Assembly: GCA_965205015.1 (NCBI GenBank)
Contig: OZ242029.1
Location: 5,504,001-5,568,000 of the forward strand
Reading direction: 5' to 3'
Origin: Candidatus Poribacteria bacterium
GTDB taxonomy: Bacteria > Poribacteria > WGA-4E > WGA-3G
Length of the DNA: 64,000 nucleotides
Shown: piece after piece, positions 5,939 to 49,948 of the stretch
Layout: every line of letters starts with the position of its first letter
Position numbering within the stretch: the stretch's first letter is position 1
Program-made: the position numbers and the translations under genes
Notes under the pieces: generated by a model
Told to the model about the DNA's origin: nothing
Database searches by the model: none
Seen by the model: the letters and a program-made list of their open reading frames with translations, nothing else

Positions 5939-7174
5939 TCATTCTCCAAATTCTCTGCCCTCCCGTTGGGCGGTCTCCCATTTTCGGTGTGTTGCAAAGA
6001 GTTTAACCTCAAAAGGGCGCATTCGCGTCACGAACGACCCATCGGATACAGTGGTTTTCTCGTCTCCGTAGAGTTCTACAAATTCGGTGCCGTTGAGGGC
6101 ATCCAACCCATTGACTTCCACCCCCATGTAGGAATGCTCATCTTCATTGACGAGCACAATGAGCCAGTCGCGTCCGATCCTACGAGCCGTGAGGCTCACA
6201 CCGCGCAGCGAAGTTGGGACAGATATATCGGTGCGTCCGTCATCAATCACTTGCACTGTGACATATCGCTCAATCGGCGCTGTGAGAAAAGATTGGAGCT
6301 CGGCGAGTTCGCTCGTCAAGGCGTAAAGCGATTTCCGAAAAGCCTCTTTTCCCTCGGATTTGAGATAACTGGATCCCCAATACAAAATGCCTCTCGCCCC
6401 ATGTGTAACGCAAGCATACGCCATCAGACGCGATTCAGCAAACGTGGGAAACGCGATGATGTCGGTGTCGCCATCATCCAAATCGTTCCATGTAAATCCC
6501 TGAAGCACCATCCATACAGGTCTCCCTTTGCCGACCTGTCCCCAACGGTCCGTGGAATCGGCAAGACGGATAGCCGGACGTCCGTCCGCCCGAACCGGAT
6601 AATCATCGCAACCCGTAATGTCTACAAAGTCAATGTACTGTCGGACAAATTTCAGATCGCTATCGCGCGCTTCATTTATCCAAATCTGTCGATTCTGTGA
6701 ATCAATACTGCGGATGAATTCAATGGCTTCGCGCATATTGGGCATAATCTCCGCCGCCTGTTCCTCAGAATACTGTATAGCAAGCGGTGTTTGCATCCAC
6801 CATTCACCTTTATTCGGGAACACCGCCAATTGATCCTGTTTCCAGAGACCACTATATGCGGTGAAGCTCCAGACCACCTCATCTGGACCTTCCCACACAG
6901 CAAGGGCGGGATGCTCCGCGAGGGAGCGGACCTGTTCCTGAAATTCGGGCGTTGCCCCCGATCGAAGCCCCAAGGGTACCCACCCCATCATTCCGTGTGC
7001 CTGTGCGCGATCCAGTGAATCCGTGTTCCCACATCGAATGAGATTGACACCCGCGTCCGCCATATCTCTGAGTGCGTCATCGTCAGCAGGATGTTCATAA
7101 AACCCGATCGGAAAGAGCCGTCGTCCATCCTGAGTGAGAAACCCATCGCCATGTCCATAGAGAATATCGCTCAT
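5939..7174 (-). CDS. Hypothetical glycoside-hydrolase-like TIM-barrel protein
   Basis: HPALAVWEGPDE, DITGCDDYP, PVWMVLQGF, HGARGILYW motifs. Confidence 0.55.
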   Translation of the reverse strand: MSDILYGHGDGFLTQDGRRLFPIGFYEHPADDDALRDMADAGVNLIRCGNTDSLDRAQAHGMMGWVPLGLRSGATPEFQEQVRSLAEHPALAVWEGPDEVVWSFTAYSGLWKQDQLAVFPNKGEWWMQTPLAIQYSEEQAAEIMPNMREAIEFIRSIDSQNRQIWINEARDSDLKFVRQYIDFVDITGCDDYPVRADGRPAIRLADSTDRWGQVGKGRPVWMVLQGFTWNDLDDGDTDIIAFPTFAESRLMAYACVTHGARGILYWGSSYLKSEGKEAFRKSLYALTSELAELQSFLTAPIERYVTVQVIDDGRTDISVPTSLRGVSLTARRIGRDWLIVLVNEDEHSYMGVEVNGLDALNGTEFVELYGDEKTTVSDGSFVTRMRPFEVKLFATHRKWETAQREGREFGE

Positions 7175-7198
7175 TCGGAACCTCCATCTCGTATATCC

Positions 7199-8578
7199 TT
7201 ATGCTAATAGGTGGTTTTCCCACCATGCGACGTAATCCACATCGCTTATATCGTGTGAGAGTCCTCGTTTTTCCATGTCCTGCCTGAATCTTTCTGCCAT
7301 ATTTTCGTCCCAATACGTGGTGACCTCTGAAGATTCAGGTATGTCTCCCATATCCCCCGTCTCCATCATCCACTTGTCGAGCCGCGCGGCGAGTTTGTTT
7401 CGCACGGCGTTATAGTCTGGATCCGCGGCGAGGTTATTAATTTCATAGGGGTCCGTTTCCAAATCATACAATTCTTCGGGGGACCGCGTCTGTTTCATAA
7501 AATGCTGTTGCGCATCGGATAACTTACCTTTTGCGGATAACAACGGCATCAAGGTCCAGAGTGGATACTGCTGTTTCTTGTAACCGTTGAATTGCATATA
7601 GGGACGCTCAGGGTGATAATTGCGAATGAGTTTATAGCGGTGCGTTCGGATACATCGAATTCTGTCATCCGTCCCGTCACACCGATCCCTCGCTGCGAAG
7701 ATTGCGTCGCGCGATGTTGCATCGACTCCGAGGAAAATTTGTCCTTGCATGAAGTCAGGAATGTCAACGCCCGCGAGGGATAACGTTGTCGGTGCGAAAT
7801 CAACACCACTGATGAGTTTGTCATCAACAGTCCCCGACGCAACACGTCCGGGCCATCGAACGATGAGCGGAATATGGATACCACCGTCATAGAGGAACTG
7901 CTTGCAACGGATATGTGCGCGGCCGTGATCGCTCATAAAGAAGATGATCGTGTTGTCCGAGAGGCCTTCATCATCCAACCGTCTGAGAATCTGTCCGACC
8001 TTTTTATCTAAAATCTGGATGCTCTCAAGATAGAGTGCCCAATCCTTTCGGACAAGCGGATGGTCAGGATAGTAAGGTGGTAACTCGACCTCCTCCGGGG
8101 AAATCGGACGTTCTCGATCCGGTTTGAAGACGCGATGTGTATCAGGGATGTTAATCTGTGCGTAAAAGGGTTGTCCTTCGGCGCGTTCGGTCCAGTCAAT
8201 GCCGTCAAAGGGGTGTTCCTGCTGAAAGTTGAAATCGGTTTTTCCGGGACGATCATAAGGGGGTCCTGGACTGTTGCAAGTAAAATAGCCTGCTTCTCGG
8301 AAACAATCGGTGATAAGGTTCATATCCGCCCGTAACGGCTTATTACGATTGCTGCGATGGTTGTGCGCGTCAAAGTGTGTCTGATAGGTCCCTGTGATCA
8401 GCGCAGAGCGACTTGGTGAACAGACTGGACATGTGACGAAAGCATTCGTATAGCGAACACCTTCGGATGCGAATCGATCAATATTTGGTGTTGCAACCGC
8501 AGGTGTGCCGTAACAGCCGAGGTCTGGCGAGAGGTCTTCGCCATAAATCCAGAGGACATTCGGTTGTGTTGTGGGCAT
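7199..8578 (-). CDS. Sulfatase (Cys-type, formylglycine-dependent)
   Basis: PNVLWI, CSPSRSALITG (CxPxR), SDHG, EELYDLETDPYE. Confidence 0.92.
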   Translation of the reverse strand: MPTTQPNVLWIYGEDLSPDLGCYGTPAVATPNIDRFASEGVRYTNAFVTCPVCSPSRSALITGTYQTHFDAHNHRSNRNKPLRADMNLITDCFREAGYFTCNSPGPPYDRPGKTDFNFQQEHPFDGIDWTERAEGQPFYAQINIPDTHRVFKPDRERPISPEEVELPPYYPDHPLVRKDWALYLESIQILDKKVGQILRRLDDEGLSDNTIIFFMSDHGRAHIRCKQFLYDGGIHIPLIVRWPGRVASGTVDDKLISGVDFAPTTLSLAGVDIPDFMQGQIFLGVDATSRDAIFAARDRCDGTDDRIRCIRTHRYKLIRNYHPERPYMQFNGYKKQQYPLWTLMPLLSAKGKLSDAQQHFMKQTRSPEELYDLETDPYEINNLAADPDYNAVRNKLAARLDKWMMETGDMGDIPESSEVTTYWDENMAERFRQDMEKRGLSHDISDVDYVAWWENHLLA

Positions 8579-32557: not shown

Positions 32558-33037
32558 ATGCAGACAAATTCCAGTGTCCACCTCTCTGAAAGCCACCTTC
32601 TGACGCAAGCGTTTCAAGAAAACCGGAACCTCGTGGTACTGGTCACCTATGCTGGCAAACGATATGTTAGGATTCGCAAGGTGACCCAGTACAATCTCTT
32701 GATTCAAGACGAGTTACCGATCTCCAAATTAGAGGTTGTTATGGCTTACCCTACCGACGCCCAGACGCTTATGAAGTCTGATCACCTGATTGACGATCAG
32801 GTAAAAACCCTAAACCAGAAACCGATCAAAAAAATCCGTGACCGGAAAATCGTTAACATGGTCGCGGCTGTTGGTGATCCGGTTAGGATCGTCCTGCGGA
32901 CTGGCGATGTTATCACAGGGTTCTGTAGATGGGTTTCGCGATACAATATCTTGCTGAACGTTAGAGGTGCCTTTGTGCTGATCTATAAGCACGGCATTCA
33001 TGAATTGAAGAATTACAGAACACCACCCTCCAATTAG
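32558..33037 (+). CDS. Hypothetical protein with Hfq/Sm-like domain(s)
   Basis: C-half VRIVLRTGDVITG...YNILL...LIYKHGI resembles Hfq Sm1/Sm2 (VYKHAI). Confidence 0.6.
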   Translation: MQTNSSVHLSESHLLTQAFQENRNLVVLVTYAGKRYVRIRKVTQYNLLIQDELPISKLEVVMAYPTDAQTLMKSDHLIDDQVKTLNQKPIKKIRDRKIVNMVAAVGDPVRIVLRTGDVITGFCRWVSRYNILLNVRGAFVLIYKHGIHELKNYRTPPSN

Positions 33038-34950: not shown

Positions 34951-35580
34951 CTAAAATTTCTTTAATTGTGCCAGTATTGGCTCAGCACCGATACGTTTAC
35001 CATTCTTGACATCAAGGTATTTCCACGCGATGTTACCATCCTGATTAACAATATAGGTCGTTGGACGTGCCACCTCGACCTCACTCGGATCAACCACATT
35101 ATAAGCCTCAATCGTCTTCGTGTTTTCATCCGAGAGCAAGAGATAGGTGATTTGAAGCATCTGCTGCGTTGAATTAGCATCCGCTATAGGATCGGAACTG
35201 ATAGCGATAAGTTCGGCACCTTCGGCTTGAATCTCTTCATAACCTTCCTGCAACTCACCGAGTTGCGTTCGACAGTCGCCTCATGTGCCGGTCCGGTAGA
35301 AAACAATAACGAGTTTCTGCCCGCGATACTCCGAAAGCGTATGGAATTCCCCATCACCATCTGGAAGTGAGAAGTCGGGTGCGAGTGCTCCGAGGTCCAA
35401 CCCTTCGCCCATTGGGAGTTTTTTCGCTGCGTCCTCTGGGGCTGTTACAACGTGGGTCGCCCGTTCTGCGTTGTCACAAGCGAGGCATAAGAAAATAATC
35501 ACAGTACACAGAACTGAGAAACCCGCTAAAGTCGCCTTCCTCGAAAATGGCGATCTCAGTTTTATAATCCAATTGTCCAT
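34951..35580 (-). CDS. Peroxiredoxin-like (AhpC/TSA) selenoprotein, predicted lipoprotein; UGA at 35283-35281 = Sec
   Basis: ORFs 35281..35595 and 34951..35253 are in frame across one TGA: APDFSLPD...VIVFYRTGT-U-GDCRTQLGELQ...LIAISSD...ARPTTYIV; hairpin downstream; LAC lipobox; ATG overlaps the sulfatase stop (TGATG). Confidence 0.85.
35250..35266 (-). promoter_or_regulatory. SECIS-like hairpin
   Basis: GCAACTC-GGT-GAGTTGC perfect 7-bp stem beginning after a 14-nt spacer 3' of the UGA. Confidence 0.75.
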
Positions 35581-36911
35581 CAGTTTCGATTGCATGTTTC
35601 AGGTCTCCCTTCATCGGCTTGTGCGTGCATCCAGTGCCGGACATCGGCGCGCATCTCTTCAAGAATTGGACGCATTTCCGCACTGAACGCCAAATTGTTG
35701 AACTCATACGGATCCGTCGTCACATCATATAATTCCTCTACCGGGTGATGCTGCGTGAGATAAACGAGTTCTGCCGTTTGCGGATCGGTCTCGGCTTTCT
35801 CTACCCAACTGTTCCACACCTCGGCGTGGCTTTCTGGAATGCCTGCAACCTCAGTGAAGTGGGTTGTCCATCTGTTTTCGGGCATCAGGTTCAAGATGTA
35901 TTTATAGCGGGTAGTGCGAACACAGCGCTGTGGGAATACATTCATATCTCCGTCGCGGGTATGCGTGCCATAGATTTTATCGCGGAAAGTCGTTTGTCGT
36001 CCGAGCAGGACATTCTTAAAACTGCTGCCGTCCAAACCGTCCAAGGGTTCACCACCAGCGATCTCTATAAGCGTCGGAAAGAAATCAACGTGTGAAACCA
36101 TCGCGTCCGAGACAGTGTCGGCTGGGATCTCGCCGCGCCATTTGGCGAGAAAGGGTAGACGGATACCGGTGTCATATAAAGTCCATTTGCAGTGGGGCCA
36201 CTCGGCACCGTGATCGGTCGTGTAGATGAAGAGTGTATTGTCGGCATATCCGTGTGTCTCTAACATTTTATTTACTGCGCCGATGCGGGCATCCATTGTT
36301 GTGATGTCTTGATAGTAATTGGCAAGCGCATTTCGAGCGATGGGCGTATCAGCGATATAGGGCGGTAGCGGCAAAGTGTCTGGATTATAAATTTTGTTCG
36401 GTTCCCATGTGACATGCGGATTGCTATCACCGAGGATGAGACAGATGGGTTGATCCGGATTCTCCCGTCGATGGCTTGAAAGAAAACGTTCAACCGGGGC
36501 GGTATCAAGTCCTTCTGCCCGATACTTCCGATCATGCTCGGCACGCTTTGGCAGGAAACCCCCGATATACTCAAAATCGAAGAGAGGCTCCGGTTTCACA
36601 TGCGTTTTACCGGCGATCGCCACGCGATAACCGAGCTCTCGAAGTGTCCGTGGTAAGGCTTTAAGATGAGCGTGGCACTCCGTATGATTGCCCATTGCAC
36701 CGTGTCGAGCTGGATATAACCCCGTATACAGGGTGGAACGAGACGGCGCACATGTCGGTGTCGGTGTGAAAGCGTGTGTAAAACGGACTCCTTCCTCGGC
36801 GAGACGATCTAAATGTGGCGTTTGGATCTGGGCATTTCCGTAACAACCGAGGTATTCCCAGCCGTGATCATCGGACAGGTAGACAACGATATTTGGCTTC
36901 TTTGATGGCAT
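35580..36911 (-). CDS. Sulfatase (sulfamidase-like)
   Basis: PNIVVYLSDD, CAPSRSTLYTG, TDHG, EELYD. Confidence 0.9.
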   Translation of the reverse strand: MPSKKPNIVVYLSDDHGWEYLGCYGNAQIQTPHLDRLAEEGVRFTHAFTPTPTCAPSRSTLYTGLYPARHGAMGNHTECHAHLKALPRTLRELGYRVAIAGKTHVKPEPLFDFEYIGGFLPKRAEHDRKYRAEGLDTAPVERFLSSHRRENPDQPICLILGDSNPHVTWEPNKIYNPDTLPLPPYIADTPIARNALANYYQDITTMDARIGAVNKMLETHGYADNTLFIYTTDHGAEWPHCKWTLYDTGIRLPFLAKWRGEIPADTVSDAMVSHVDFFPTLIEIAGGEPLDGLDGSSFKNVLLGRQTTFRDKIYGTHTRDGDMNVFPQRCVRTTRYKYILNLMPENRWTTHFTEVAGIPESHAEVWNSWVEKAETDPQTAELVYLTQHHPVEELYDVTTDPYEFNNLAFSAEMRPILEEMRADVRHWMHAQADEGRPETCNRN

Positions 36912-40333: not shown

Positions 40334-40362
40334 TTGCCTAAAAAATTAATACGTGTTAGAAT
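40334..40362 (+). promoter_or_regulatory. sigma70 promoter of the first HMA gene
   Basis: TTGCCT-N17-TAGAAT with TG extension; AAGGAGG RBS downstream. Confidence 0.55.
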
Positions 40363-40392
40363 AACGAATAAGTAATTCAAGGAGGTTAACCC

Positions 40393-40779
40393 ATGCATAT
40401 CGCAAGATTATCGCTTATTTGTCTTATTGCTTTCGTATTCATGGTAGGCTGTGGTCTGATTGGGAAAGAAGCAGAGATGCCTGAAACCACCACAGCTGCT
40501 ATGGACGGTGCTGAAATGAAATCCGACATGAAGACGGATGGCGACATGATGGAAGCCGCCGTTGAAGAAGTTACACTGAACGTTACAGGGATGACGTGAG
40601 GCGCGTGTACCAGCAAGGTGCAGGATGCACTCAGTAAAGTCGTCGGGGTTTCTGAAGTGGTCAGTGTTTCTTCAACGGATAACACGGCTGTTGTGAAGGT
40701 TGAGAAAGGTAAAGTTAAGTCTGCCGATCTCACGACAGCAGTTCAAGGTGCCGGCTTCAGTGCCGAAGTCGCTCAATAA
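40393..40779 (+). CDS. HMA (CopZ/MerP-like) selenoprotein lipoprotein 1; UGA 40597-40599 = Sec
   Basis: VTLNVTGMT-U-GACTSKVQDALSKVVGVSEV...AVQGAGFSAEVAQ; frame open to TAA 40777-79; MVGC lipobox; Met-rich linker. Confidence 0.88.
40617..40631 (+). promoter_or_regulatory. SECIS-like hairpin
   Basis: GGTGCA-GGA-TGCACT after a 17-nt spacer 3' of the UGA. Confidence 0.7.
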
Positions 40780-40793
40780 GGCTGAATCGGAGG

Positions 40794-40818
40794 GGGTGGG
40801 GTGACCCACCCTTTCTTT
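40794..40818 (+). terminator. Intrinsic terminator
   Basis: GGGTGGG-GTGA-CCCACCC-TTTCTTT. Confidence 0.65.
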
Positions 40819-40944
40819 CTATAGGAACAGGTTGCAAACCACAACTCTCTTGCAGCCTTAATTCAAATAAAGTTTCAACCATCAGCGTTGAAGTTGAAGA
40901 GGCGCGATCGAGAGATCGTCCCTACACATAAGGGGATTAAACTT

Positions 40945-41289
40945 ATGCGTCAGTTAAACGTGAGCCTGCTATTCGTTTGCTTGGCAGCACTGCTGTTTGT
41001 GTTCGCGTGCGCAGACACAGCAAAGAAAGAGGCAGAAGAGGCAGCACCCGCGCAAACAGCAGCACCAGCCATTGAAGAAGTAACGCTGGCTGTGACCGGT
41101 ATGACATGAGGCGCGTGTACCAGCAAAGTGCAGGATGCACTCACAAAGCTTACCGGTGTGACTGAGGTCGTCAGTGTTTCTATGGAAGAAAATAAGGCTG
41201 TGGTGAAAATTGAGAAGGACAAGGTTGAGAAAGACGCGCTCGTGAAAGCGGTTACAGACGTAGGTTTCAGCGCGCAAGTCGCTAACTAA
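40945..41289 (+). CDS. HMA selenoprotein lipoprotein 2; UGA 41107-41109 = Sec
   Basis: VTLAVTGMT-U-GACTSKVQDALTKLTGVTEV...AVTDVGFSAQVAN; frame open to TAA 41287-89; VFAC lipobox. Confidence 0.88.
41127..41141 (+). promoter_or_regulatory. SECIS-like hairpin
   Basis: AGTGCA-GGA-TGCACT, same offset as in the paralog. Confidence 0.7.
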
Positions 41290-41324: not shown

Positions 41325-41357
41325 AAAAAAAATGCGAGGTTGTACCTCGCATTTTTT
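41325..41357. terminator. Bidirectional intrinsic terminator
   Basis: A-run-TGCGAGGT-TGT-ACCTCGCA-T-run between convergent genes. Confidence 0.8.
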
Positions 41358-42308: not shown

Positions 42309-43475
42309 TCAACCCTTAATTAACAATTTCTCATAAACATTTTGTACCTTCCGGACATGCATTTCAACGCCGAACGCTGCTTCAGCATATTTTCTTGCCT
42401 GTTGCCCCATACGTACGCTTCGGGTCGGATTCTTGACGAGTTCAACAATTTTATCTGCAATTCCGTCTATGGGGTCTAACGGCACAATGTATCCTGTTTT
42501 ACCGTGAACAATCATTTCAGGCAGGCTCGGAGACTGCCATTCCAGTTGCAGATCTACAACGTATCCTGTTTCACCGTGGACAATCATTTCAGCAGTACTG
42601 CCAACCGGGGTTCCGATGACAGGCTTACCTGCCGCCATCGCCTCGGCGATGACACTCCCCGCTGAAAGGGTTACGAGTAGATCGAGCTCTTGCATCGCCT
42701 TGGGCATATCGGTGCGGTGCCCTGTGAAGCGAACACGTTCCTGTAACCCATATTTGGCTATCAATTGACGGACCTCTTGTTCATAGGTTCGATGCTCCGG
42801 TGTCCCCAGCGTGCCCCCGATAATACGAAACCTAACCCCCTTGCACTGTGCCGCGACCTTGGCGGCTATCTCAACGAACGCTTTCTGACGTTTGAAGGGT
42901 TCAATCCTACCGACAATACCGACGACATATTCCGCCGAGTGAACGGGATCAGAAACGGGTTGAAAAGCCGATACGTCAACACAATTATGGACGACCTCAA
43001 TTTTTTGGGGGGCAATCCCTGCTTGAATCAGTGGAACACTGCTCTGCTCCGAGATAGCGATGATACTGTCCATCCGGGCGAATTTGTATTTTCGGACTTG
43101 GGTCAGCGTAAGGAGATTCCGCACATGCGAAACGACAGGAATTTTCAACTGTTTTCTAACCGACCATAGATACGGGTTGAACCACGAGTCGGACGTATGG
43201 ATTAGGCATGTGTTGTGCGTTTCGGCAAGTGAAACTAACTTTCTGACGGCACTGTACCTCGCTACCCATGATTTCGCCTTTCGCCACGGCGGAAGATCGA
43301 GAATCACCGTCGGAATATCTATCCCCCTTAAGTGTTCAGCGAAAACACCATCATCAGGGCAAACAACAAGCGGACGATAGCGCGTTCGATCCATATTTTC
43401 GACGAGATAAGCAAGTTGCTTCTCACCGCCACCGATGCTCGAACCACAATGGCTGAGGTAAAGTATCGAAATCAT
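42309..43475 (-). CDS. Glycosyltransferase family 4
   Basis: GGGEKQ, VGRIEPFKRQ, EAMAAGKPVI. Confidence 0.88.
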   Translation of the reverse strand: MISILYLSHCGSSIGGGEKQLAYLVENMDRTRYRPLVVCPDDGVFAEHLRGIDIPTVILDLPPWRKAKSWVARYSAVRKLVSLAETHNTCLIHTSDSWFNPYLWSVRKQLKIPVVSHVRNLLTLTQVRKYKFARMDSIIAISEQSSVPLIQAGIAPQKIEVVHNCVDVSAFQPVSDPVHSAEYVVGIVGRIEPFKRQKAFVEIAAKVAAQCKGVRFRIIGGTLGTPEHRTYEQEVRQLIAKYGLQERVRFTGHRTDMPKAMQELDLLVTLSAGSVIAEAMAAGKPVIGTPVGSTAEMIVHGETGYVVDLQLEWQSPSLPEMIVHGKTGYIVPLDPIDGIADKIVELVKNPTRSVRMGQQARKYAEAAFGVEMHVRKVQNVYEKLLIKG

Positions 43476-47907: not shown

Positions 47908-49173
47908 ATGTCATTCAAATCTATCTTCATTTCTGTTTTTTTGGGGACATCCCTGATTGTCGTCGCCCTGATTTTCAATGCGAAACGTCCGATTACGGAA
48001 ACCAGTCAACCCAGTGCCGATTTTGTGCGAGCGACAGGAAAGTGTGCAGCGTGCCACCGCCGCGAGACAGCGGCAATTATTCACCAATTTGAACGCAGTG
48101 AGCACGCAAAAGAGGGTGTCACCTGCTTAGATTGCCACAGAGCCGTCGAAAATCAAGAAACACAAGCACACAAAGGGTTTACTATCGCCAAACATCTGAC
48201 GGCGAAGAATTGCAGTGAATGCCACGCAACGGAGTATACGCAATTTCTCCGAAGTCGGCACGCGGCACCGGCTTGGGCAGCGGTGTCAGGCGCGAGAGAC
48301 TTCACTGCAGAACAGATCGCCTTCGCTGAGAAATACCATAAAGGCGCCGTAAATCGTCCTGCAAATCAACTGGCGGTCACGGAAGGCGAAAGTGCAATTA
48401 ACGTCGGATGTTTGGGATGCCATGATATAGGTAAACCAAACGCTGATGGCTCTATCGGCACTTGTACAGCATGCCATGCCCGTCACTCCAGCTCTATCGC
48501 TTTGGCACGGGAACCGGAAACTTGCGGACAATGCCACATGGGACCAGACCACGCACAAATTGAAATCTATCACGAATCTAAGCACGGGGTGCTTTACAAC
48601 GCCCAGAAAGCGGATATGAATCTCAAAGCACCTCCGAAAACACTCACCACAGCGGATATGTCGGTCCCAACATGTGTGACATGCCACTTAAGCGGTTTAG
48701 ACGGATTGAATGTGACGCACGATACAACCGAAAGACTCTCATATTGGCTATTTGCAGCTGTCTCCGACAAACGCCCGACCTATCAACAGGGACAAGATAC
48801 AATGCAGGAGACCTGTTTAAAGTGCCATGCGCGGTCGCAAGTCGAAAAATTTTATCAGGAAGCTGAAGGTGTTGTCGCGGATACCAACGAAAAAATTAGA
48901 GAAGCGACAGCGTTGATGAAATCTCTTCGTGAAGATGGATTACTGACCGAAACCCCTTTTGATGAACCCATCGAATTCCTCTACTTTGATCTTTGGCACT
49001 ACTATGGTCGAACCGCCAAACACGGTGCATTTATGGGAGGTGCCGACTTTGTTCAATGGCACGGGAATTATGAACTTTTGCTAAAAATGACGGAGTTGAA
49101 AAAAATTGCCGGAGAACTTAGGGAATCGCGATTCGGAGATCGCTCCTACCGAGGGGACAATGAAAAACCGTAA
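47908..49173 (+). CDS. Octaheme c-type cytochrome, hydroxylamine oxidoreductase-like
   Basis: Eight CxxCH motifs; CGQCHMGPDH...IYHESKHG; N-terminal anchor. Confidence 0.85.
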   Translation: MSFKSIFISVFLGTSLIVVALIFNAKRPITETSQPSADFVRATGKCAACHRRETAAIIHQFERSEHAKEGVTCLDCHRAVENQETQAHKGFTIAKHLTAKNCSECHATEYTQFLRSRHAAPAWAAVSGARDFTAEQIAFAEKYHKGAVNRPANQLAVTEGESAINVGCLGCHDIGKPNADGSIGTCTACHARHSSSIALAREPETCGQCHMGPDHAQIEIYHESKHGVLYNAQKADMNLKAPPKTLTTADMSVPTCVTCHLSGLDGLNVTHDTTERLSYWLFAAVSDKRPTYQQGQDTMQETCLKCHARSQVEKFYQEAEGVVADTNEKIREATALMKSLREDGLLTETPFDEPIEFLYFDLWHYYGRTAKHGAFMGGADFVQWHGNYELLLKMTELKKIAGELRESRFGDRSYRGDNEKP

Positions 49174-49948
49174 GGGGTTGGCTGCTAAATTACTCGACAT
49201 TTTCATTATCGCGAACCTCGCCTTTTTGGCACTTGACGTGTTCATTGCTCACGCCATAAACGCATTTGACCACTCCGCGGAATGGATCCCCTTCTACTTC
49301 TCATTAGGTGCGCCCGGACTCCTTGCATTCACTGTATTTACGAAAAAGAAACGGTGGCAACACTGGTGCAGGATCAGCGTTGGAGGGTGCTCTATTTGCA
49401 TCGGGGTTGCCGGAATGCTCTTTCATCTCAGCAGTCATTTTTTTTCCGACATGACCCTTAAAAACCTCGTTTATACAGCCCCTTTTGTAGCCCCGCTCGC
49501 TTTTACAGGGATAGGACTCCTTTTAATCATGAATAGTATGATCCACGATGGAAATTTAGAATGGGCACACTGGGTTGTATTTATGGCAGGATGCGGATGG
49601 TGCGGAAATTTCATCCTCTCCGTTTTCGATCATGCGCAAAACGGGTTCTTCAATCCAGCAGAGTGGTTACCCGTTTTCACAAGTGCCGTTGCTATTGGAT
49701 GTTTAACAACACTTTTTTTCGTCCCTCACCACCTCTTTTTCTTTAAATTCTGCGGCGTTGTATTAGGGATTAATTTCATCGTCGGGGTCGCTGGGTTCTT
49801 CTTTCACTTCGTAGCAGATTTGCAGGTGCCAGCGGTGGAGCGAATAGACAGATTCCTCTATGGAGCCCCTCTATTCGCTCCACTCCTGTTTCCAAACCTC
49901 TCGCTGCTCGCCACATTGGGTATTTGGAAATGGTCCAGCAGAAATTGA
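49160..49948 (+). CDS. Polytopic membrane partner of the octaheme cytochrome
   Basis: About 8 TM in two repeats (H..N.F....EW.P; G.AG..FH; AP..APL.F); start overlaps the cytochrome gene end. Confidence 0.7.
   Translation: MKNRKGLAAKLLDIFIIANLAFLALDVFIAHAINAFDHSAEWIPFYFSLGAPGLLAFTVFTKKKRWQHWCRISVGGCSICIGVAGMLFHLSSHFFSDMTLKNLVYTAPFVAPLAFTGIGLLLIMNSMIHDGNLEWAHWVVFMAGCGWCGNFILSVFDHAQNGFFNPAEWLPVFTSAVAIGCLTTLFFVPHHLFFFKFCGVVLGINFIVGVAGFFFHFVADLQVPAVERIDRFLYGAPLFAPLLFPNLSLLATLGIWKWSSRN

Follow-up and report, generated by a model that had tools for sequence, protein, structure and literature searches.

Comparison with known selenocysteine-containing metal-binding proteins

Heavy-metal-binding (HMA) domains that carry selenocysteine (Sec, U) are already known, from the NCBIfam families NF041115 and NF045683 and from P1B-type ATPases. 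In the accessible text of the respective sources, Sec is reported in MerP, in a mercuric transport protein and in a cation ATPase with a UxxC motif (PMC2398784, PMC1976440, PMC9312934), the ATPase being a cation-transporting P1B-ATPase (TIGR01525/COG2217) whose Sec lies in this motif (PMC9312934, PMC13188914); a UxxU protein of the NF041115 type is listed under the name "putative mercuric reductase" (PMC9312934, PMC13188914), and a case for Sec as a heavy-metal ligand has been argued (10.1101/2022.07.06.499078). The accessible description of CopL of Staphylococcus aureus presents it as a membrane-anchored, extracytoplasmic Cu(I)-binding lipoprotein with a novel Cu(I)-binding architecture (PMC11672702), and by that description alone it is a functional precedent for the lipoproteins reported here.

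The locus compared with these systems lies in a window of 64,000 nucleotides, the whole stretch of DNA analysed, and consists of two tandem genes. Its closest relatives by sequence belong to Candidatus Poribacteria, bacteria mainly known as sponge symbionts, and the nearest of them, L017, is 88.8% identical across 2.9 kb. With U read as C, both predicted proteins score above the cut-off of the Pfam HMA family PF00403 (36.5 and 43.4 bits against 24.8) but below every NCBIfam cut-off tested. Like the pair, NF041115 (UxxU_metal_bind), the best NCBIfam match of gene 2, describes an HMA domain with Sec in the metal loop; its model of 74 positions has two Sec in a UxxU motif absent from both proteins, whereas the pair combines UxxC with a lipoprotein signal and a tether, and genes 1 and 2 reach 47.7 and 63.5 bits against a cut-off of 95. 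NF045683 (MerT_CopZ_Se), known here by model name and scores alone, is likewise a Sec family with a CopZ-like domain, but has a MerT-like part that the window proteins lack (37.9 and 47.4 bits against 375). The Sec-containing P1B-ATPases share the UxxC motif, which presumably sits in their HMA domain, but are parts of a membrane pump, whereas the window proteins are stand-alone and predicted to be exported. MerP (TIGR02052; PDB 1osd, 1afi) and Gram-positive MerP (NF033553) resemble the pair as exported single HMA domains but have a Cys-Cys site and a mer-operon context, neither of which is seen in the window; the scores are 47.7 bits against 92.55 for TIGR02052 and 31.3 bits against 110 for NF033553, the latter aligned to residues 9-109 of gene 2. 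CopZ chaperones (NF033794, NF033795, NF047957) have the same fold and loop and score 53-57 bits for gene 2, below their cut-offs, but are cytoplasmic, Cys-only and devoid of a signal, and the related genomes hold separate Cys CopZ-like genes. A five-repeat array of the wider family exceeds the NF041115 and other cut-offs only by summing its repeats.

Gene pair and domain layout

Gene 1 (40393..40779) and gene 2 (40945..41289), both on the forward strand, each read GMT-TGA-GAC. As the original prediction had it, under genetic code table 11 both frames halt at GMT, and read-through yields a complete HMA domain that passes the Pfam cut-off, in proteins of 128 and 114 aa, each terminated by TAA. 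Gene 1 would encode a lipoprotein with the lipobox MVGC (40441..40452, +; Cys20), the most frequent one in the family, followed by a Met-rich linker (40453..40563, +; six Met in 37 aa) and a Sec-HMA domain, in which the conserved in-frame UGA at 40597..40599 (+) specifies the putative Sec, U69, the first ligand of UxxC. Gene 2 has the lipobox VFAC (40999..41010, +; Cys22), an Ala/Glu/Pro linker of 21 residues with no Met, and a Sec-HMA domain with the conserved UGA at 41107..41109 (+; putative Sec, U55). By pattern and hydropathy only, both N-termini consist of a basic residue, a hydrophobic stretch (mean hydropathy 2.8 and 2.9) and the lipobox, so that the two lipoprotein signals of the original prediction, and likewise its Met-rich linker in copy 1, are found again here. 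A lipobox-type motif occurs in 111/111 domains classed as lipoprotein, a class itself set by a similar pattern. Linkers like that of copy 1 contain at least three Met in 45 of 50 cases, 55 of 61 other linkers contain none, and the largest count is 18. In copy 1 of L019 the Met-rich linker is enlarged by repeats of a 14-residue unit.

An AlphaFold model has the strand-helix-strand-strand-helix-strand order of the HMA topology, with the CxxC-type loop before helix 1 and a pLDDT of about 90 over the domain. The best Foldseek match is MerP (1osd; E 2.2e-7, 1.1 Å rmsd), followed by Cu(I)-binding domains. Contigs of run X21 (pieces 13-15) show no difference from the window over both TGAs; since X21 may be the source sample, this identity counts against sequence error only. 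Contigs from three RNA libraries of relatives (X1, X5, X6) span parts of both genes, which says nothing on transcription, level or strand. Both are almost certainly intact selenoprotein genes, predicted to encode whole, membrane-anchored, copper-chaperone-like products with Sec at the metal site.

Conservation of the UGA codons and Sec machinery

Both genes of a tandem pair have TGA in 27 of the 30 closest loci; of the other three, two hold a five-repeat array and L030 a pair with Cys. The pattern GM[T/V/A]-TGA-x-x-Cys followed by a hairpin was present in 117 of 150 sampled Poribacteria genomes, a lower bound since the pattern presupposes the hairpin, and its reversed form in none; three genomes negative for it hold variant forms. 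No Cys form of the single-domain lipoprotein was found among 21 of the 54 public protein matches. Genes for selA, selB, selD and tRNA-Sec all score above cut-off in 5/5 related genomes, including the closest relative (about 89% identical over the locus), and selA is found in 143 of the 150 sampled Poribacteria genomes.

SelD itself has an in-frame TGA in 5/5 genomes (L235-L239), followed by short G-loop hairpins, of which the strict pattern matched 2/5.

In public protein records the products either break off at GMT or show W at this site, as would be expected if the TGAs were true stops, leaving pseudogenes or short lipopeptides, or if TGA were read as Trp. Either is extremely improbable: in every TGA copy examined the downstream domain is conserved to its own stop, the TGA aligns with an invariant Cys of the homologues, domains with a Cys codon have lost the hairpin described below, even when Sec domains lie in the same gene, and in the window long ordinary genes end in TGA (e.g. 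35580-36911 and 42309-43475). Reading as Trp was ruled out by this use of TGA as an ordinary stop together with the comparison of public records. From the comparative evidence, it is close to certain that Sec would be inserted at both UGAs. The selenoprotein reading of the original prediction is thus well supported by the conserved TGA, the hairpin under selection and the Sec machinery of relatives, and of the checks that it proposed, those on alignment of TGA with Cys and on conservation of TGA in relatives returned what it anticipated; selA, selB, selD and tRNA-Sec were found in the related genomes searched.

A conserved hairpin downstream of the UGA codons

Each UGA is followed by a putative SECIS hairpin, identified by conservation and covariation, with a 6-bp stem and a GGA loop at +24 to +26 (gene 1, 40617..40631, +; gene 2, 41127..41141, +). 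The 34 nt 3' of the TGA differ between the genes at a single position, +18. The count of 33/34 in the original prediction was right, but the stretch encodes 11 identical amino acids in both copies, and the part fixed across the family is limited to +18 to +32, the preceding 17 nt being variable among orthologues. The stem of six pairs (+18 to +23 with +27 to +32) is complete in each of 68 TGA domains, drawn from 37 loci, and in 0/7 Cys domains. The codons within the hairpin are fixed for Val (68/68), Gln (66/66), Asp (57/57) and Ala (68/68), and Leu is always CTN; Val positions outside the hairpin use three or four codons. In a larger set of 180 distinct domains, selected manually and for similarity to the window, with a pattern that missed two WD40 fusions, one copy in L220, and L227, the six pairs are kept in 133/136 TGA domains and 0/44 Cys domains. 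Close exported Cys paralogues retain five pairs in 9/14 cases and the full hairpin in 0/14. Over 109 distinct sequences 99.1% of cells are paired, a value matched by 0/500 shuffles, although this control ignores relatedness, which inflates such tests. Compensatory changes are seen in two pairs, from G-C to A-U via a G-U intermediate and from A-U to G-C. That the hairpin is under selection and tracks the Sec codon is strongly supported by these alignments.

The change from G-U to A-U at +18, noted in the original prediction, was rejected as evidence for the hairpin, because it is a Lys AAG/AAA wobble in which both synonymous codons pair; the informative wobble cases are those with non-Lys codons, which still end in a purine (9/9).

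The hairpin has a 6-bp stem, a spacing of 23 nt from the UGA and a 3-nt loop with G as first base in 135/136 domains. Its loop, stem and spacing fall within the bacterial SECIS model given in the accessible text of PMC13188914, i.e. a loop of 3-9 nt, a stem of 4-16 bp, G in the first two loop positions and a distance of 16-37 nt from the UGA. The same text gives a consensus energy of -7.5 kcal/mol or lower (PMC13188914), of which the isolated hairpin with short flanks, at -5.5 to -7.0 kcal/mol, falls short; longer stretches fold at -13.8 and -18.2, but as an alternative fold that competes with the hairpin. The minimum-energy fold, which pairs the UGA itself, was considered as the conserved element and rejected (89.1% paired, no covariation above shuffles), and may form as an alternative. 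The conserved element is the hairpin that the original prediction had named, even though the predicted minimum-energy fold differs from it. In the window, 14 of 2307 TGA triplets have such a hairpin 3', and 3 of 102 TGA-x-x-Cys sites do, namely genes 1 and 2 and an AhpC/TSA-family gene.

This AhpC/TSA-family gene (34951-35595, -) has an in-frame TGA in TGT-U-GDC (U105; 214 aa when read through) and a perfect 7-bp hairpin with a GGT loop at +22. It is probably the third selenoprotein gene of the window and points to Sec use from within the stretch itself.

Arrays, fusions and Cys forms in the wider family

The pair belongs to an overlooked family of predicted selenoproteins that is widespread in Poribacteria and includes repeat proteins of up to four Sec. 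The original prediction correctly saw precedents for Sec-HMA domains; that the family is phylum-wide and forms multi-Sec arrays lay beyond its view. Secreted tandem HMA arrays without a lipobox occur in 8/175 genomes (L153 5356-6576, +; L174 from 1501, +; L154, L155, L156, L158, L023 and L024), with the layouts U-U-U-U-C (2), U-U-U-C (4), U-U-U-C-C (1) and U-U-C-C-C (1). Each Sec repeat carries the full hairpin, and the Cys repeats are invariably last, all 11 of them reading C-[D/E]-A-C-P. The arrays are not simple assembly duplicates, since the repeats of L153 are 74-97% identical and four arrays are on contigs of 5 Mb or more; the two four-Sec arrays sit on shorter contigs. According to the accessible text of the 2026 catalogue, which holds 119 prokaryotic selenoprotein families, a small subset has two to three Sec and none more than three (PMC13188914), so that the four-Sec arrays exceed any prokaryotic protein given there.

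In 5/5 genomes checked, an exported PSCyt1 cytochrome c-WD40 protein ends in the same module, with the same hairpin; such fusions are seen at L112 (7753-9348, -), L113, L114, L115, L117 and L234, near a DUF1549/DUF1553 gene. All 136 Sec domains counted belong to exported proteins, and the cytoplasmic forms are all Cys (ATPase domains 21/21, CopZ-like proteins 6/6). The second Cys of the motif is kept in 136/136 TGA domains (UxxC) under a search pattern that allowed C or U there. Exported Cys domains number 14, three in lipoproteins and 11 in array repeats, so that Sec is not required outside the cytoplasm; two MerT-like Cys fusions may also face outwards. The Cys versions of the lipoproteins have decayed hairpins (L030/L232 in G005, L159 in G036); both genomes have selA and other Sec-HMA genes, and the near relative L233 has Sec.

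In a tree from a quick search (109 domains, 67 columns, the U/C site masked, near-identical rows thinned from 166), which is weakly resolved, the exported domains form one clade with support of 95, except for one divergent domain of genome G140. Cys members are nested in this clade at four separate places, which suggests that Sec was ancestral in the exported clade and was repeatedly lost. The arrays fall into two separate groups, and with only about two independent origins the order with Cys last could be due to chance. The divergent exported Sec-HMA genes of G140 (L226 5969-6283, -; L227 733-1527, +) fall outside the main clade, in another subfamily, and have an 8-bp hairpin with a GGA loop at +33. 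One of them lies ahead of genes for cytochrome c and SCO1, and the other ahead of a Cus-like efflux cluster.

In G140, a MerT-like membrane part is fused to a Cys HMA domain at L203 and L206 (named by eye), so that mer-type transport exists in at least one Poribacteria genome. At L154, a 160-aa lipoprotein-like ORF (6885-7379, +) follows the pair; it has a degenerate HMA-like first strand without CxxC and no Pfam match, and similar ORFs are present in L153, L164 and L165.

Beyond Poribacteria, CxxC was found in 58/58 domains of 46 genome loci, and in a metagenome scan in 106/106 domains among the matches listed, none of them a close relative; both scans select Cys codons and show no absence of Sec. 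The literature searched describes neither this family nor a bacterial protein with four Sec, although Haft and Tolstoy 2025 (mSystems 10:e0141724) could describe related Sec-HMA families and the supplements of reviews could list Poribacteria entries. The main text of deep-Sep lacks terms for the family, and its supplement could list Poribacteria entries (PMC12013277). The selenoprotein literature on Poribacteria that was found is, in its accessible text, a hydrogenase study (PMC13582414).

Promoter, terminators and neighbouring genes

A sigma-70-type promoter upstream of gene 1 was identified by pattern and alignment (40334..40362, +; TTGCCT, 17 nt, TAGAAT, with TG before the -10 box and an A-tract upstream). 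The pattern is weak alone (one found against 1.2 expected in shuffles); in 29 aligned upstream regions the -35 box, -10 box and A-tract are conserved while the spacer varies, and by eye no conserved palindrome or metal-responsive operator was seen in them. Gene 1 has a strong ribosome-binding site, AAGGAGGT (40379..40386, +), which is conserved in the aligned upstream regions, and gene 2 a probable one assigned by eye, AAGGGGA (40930..40936, +). A terminator-like hairpin with a T-rich tail lies between the genes (40798..40812, +; pattern only), and a 14-bp terminator-like hairpin between gene 2 and a convergent PhyH gene (41327..41357; pattern). The functional pair of the original prediction gains no support from the terminator-like hairpin between the genes, nor from the presence, in the stretches fetched from several lineages, of one gene or an array instead of the pair.

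The original prediction found no MerT, MerA or P1B-ATPase gene adjacent, and no MerT or MerA gene lies next to the pair in the window or the closest loci; nor does any metal-handling gene recur beside the window-type pair in the window or L001-L030. The genes that do recur in L001-L030 encode a GIY-YIG/UVR nuclease, PhyH proteins, a glycosyltransferase and, as identified by eye, PRPP synthetase, LamG and sulfatase; the neighbours of distant loci are unrelated. Three further features of the window may be recorded: a multi-haem cytochrome c gene (421 aa) followed by one for a membrane protein without Pfam match (47908-49948, +); a short tandem repeat, probably intergenic, in which KGRHKTCH occurs several times in one frame (about 1310-1430, +); and a gene (32558-33037, +) whose 159-aa product has weak similarity to Hfq at its C-terminus, below cut-off.

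Possible functions

The account that we favour, from Sec insertion and export to a role as Cu(I)/Ag(I) buffer or chaperone, is one that we would give, taken as a whole, an even chance of being right. SelB would bind the short hairpin 23 nt after the UGA and insert Sec. The products would be exported and lipidated on the lipobox Cys, and would display the HMA domain extracytoplasmically at the end of a flexible tether, as the signals and the fold suggest. In E. coli, lipoproteins without Asp at +2 are sorted to the outer membrane; the window proteins have no Asp at this position and might follow the same route, although this is uncertain. The Sec-x-x-Cys loop would bind one soft metal ion in linear coordination through Se and S. 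The bound metal would most likely be Cu(I), incidentally Ag(I), and the proteins would act as a constitutive periplasmic buffer or chaperone. Met-rich stretches bind Cu(I)/Ag(I), and the tether of copy 1 would add low-affinity sites of this kind. A selenolate stays ionised and recovers from oxidation more readily than a thiol; Sec may have been kept in the exported domains because it suits an oxidising compartment, whereas the cytoplasmic CopZ and CopA manage with Cys.

The Cu/Hg/Ag role of the original prediction thus stands as soft-metal binding deduced from the domain, within which copper appears favoured and mercury is weakened by the absence of MerT, and of MerA over cut-off, from the five related genomes and by the lack of a conserved operator. 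Copper is preferred because of the Met-rich tether of copy 1, the copper genes of relatives (a Cu-type P1B-ATPase in the one tested, a CusA/CzcA-type pump in 4/5, COX1 in 5/5) and the SCO1 and Cus-like neighbours in one genome, G140, although these copper-context loci belong to a different subfamily from the window pair. The HMA motif does not tell Cu(I), Ag(I) and Hg(II) apart, and the closest structural match, MerP, is a protein that handles mercury. Scavenging of Hg(II) or methylmercury outside the cytoplasm, in the manner of MerP, would accord with that fold match, with the alignment of gene 2 over nearly the whole Gram-positive MerP model and with the very high affinity of Se for Hg. We nevertheless consider it improbable: both proteins score far below the MerP cut-offs, MerT and MerA over cut-off are each found in 0/5 related genomes, and the best MerA-like match checked lacks a Cys-Cys terminus and has its highest score as a FAD oxidoreductase of another kind. 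The 17-nt promoter spacer without conserved operator also differs from the architecture of MerR-type promoters. Sec-bearing MerP and MerT do feature in the accessible literature (PMC2398784, PMC9312934, PMC13188914).

A redox function, in which the HMA scaffold would carry UxxC as a redox centre that exchanges thiols and disulfides, scavenges oxidants or supplies reductant for cytochrome c maturation, is unlikely, though the most probable of the rivals. The accessible text of PMC13188914 regards the majority of predicted prokaryotic selenoproteins as redox proteins and gives UxxC as their commonest motif; a c-type cytochrome-WD40 protein carries the module as a fusion, the promoter looks constitutive, and one solved MerP structure is, by its title, the oxidised form. 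The fold is however that of HMA proteins rather than thioredoxin, with the GMT-x-x-x-C loop kept, and five-fold tandem arrays and Met-rich tethers fit binding capacity better than catalysis. It is very improbable that the proteins serve mainly to store or carry selenium, as selenoprotein P does in animals: the presence of up to four Sec in an array and the near-consensus promoter and ribosome-binding site would suit such a role, but the second Cys is kept in all TGA domains counted, one Sec per 70 residues makes a poor store, and the arrays end in Cys repeats.

Significance

Nearly all selenoproteins studied are redox enzymes, and the present family bears on why Sec might be kept as a plain metal ligand. 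The family offers matched natural controls, since one small domain exists with Sec and with Cys in the same genome, in sister lineages and inside the same polypeptide. It also provides a minimal SECIS candidate, supported by covariation, for a phylum whose selenoproteins have barely been described, and natural genes that would require three or four UGA read-throughs, of use for the study of processive Sec insertion in bacteria. Annotation is corrected where public calls give nameless fragments or Trp.

Under the preferred reading of a copper buffer or chaperone, a broader and clearly more speculative proposal, which we think rather unlikely to hold in full, is that Poribacteria possess a selenium-based extracytoplasmic copper layer, in which a portable Sec-HMA domain with its SECIS has been placed on lipoproteins, on the cytochrome c-WD40 protein and in arrays, the arrays acting as a translational rheostat set by selenium. 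Because the Cys repeats follow the Sec repeats, partial read-through of the UGAs would yield a product ladder, and both the binding capacity and the presence of the terminal thiol domain for hand-off would then depend on selenium supply.
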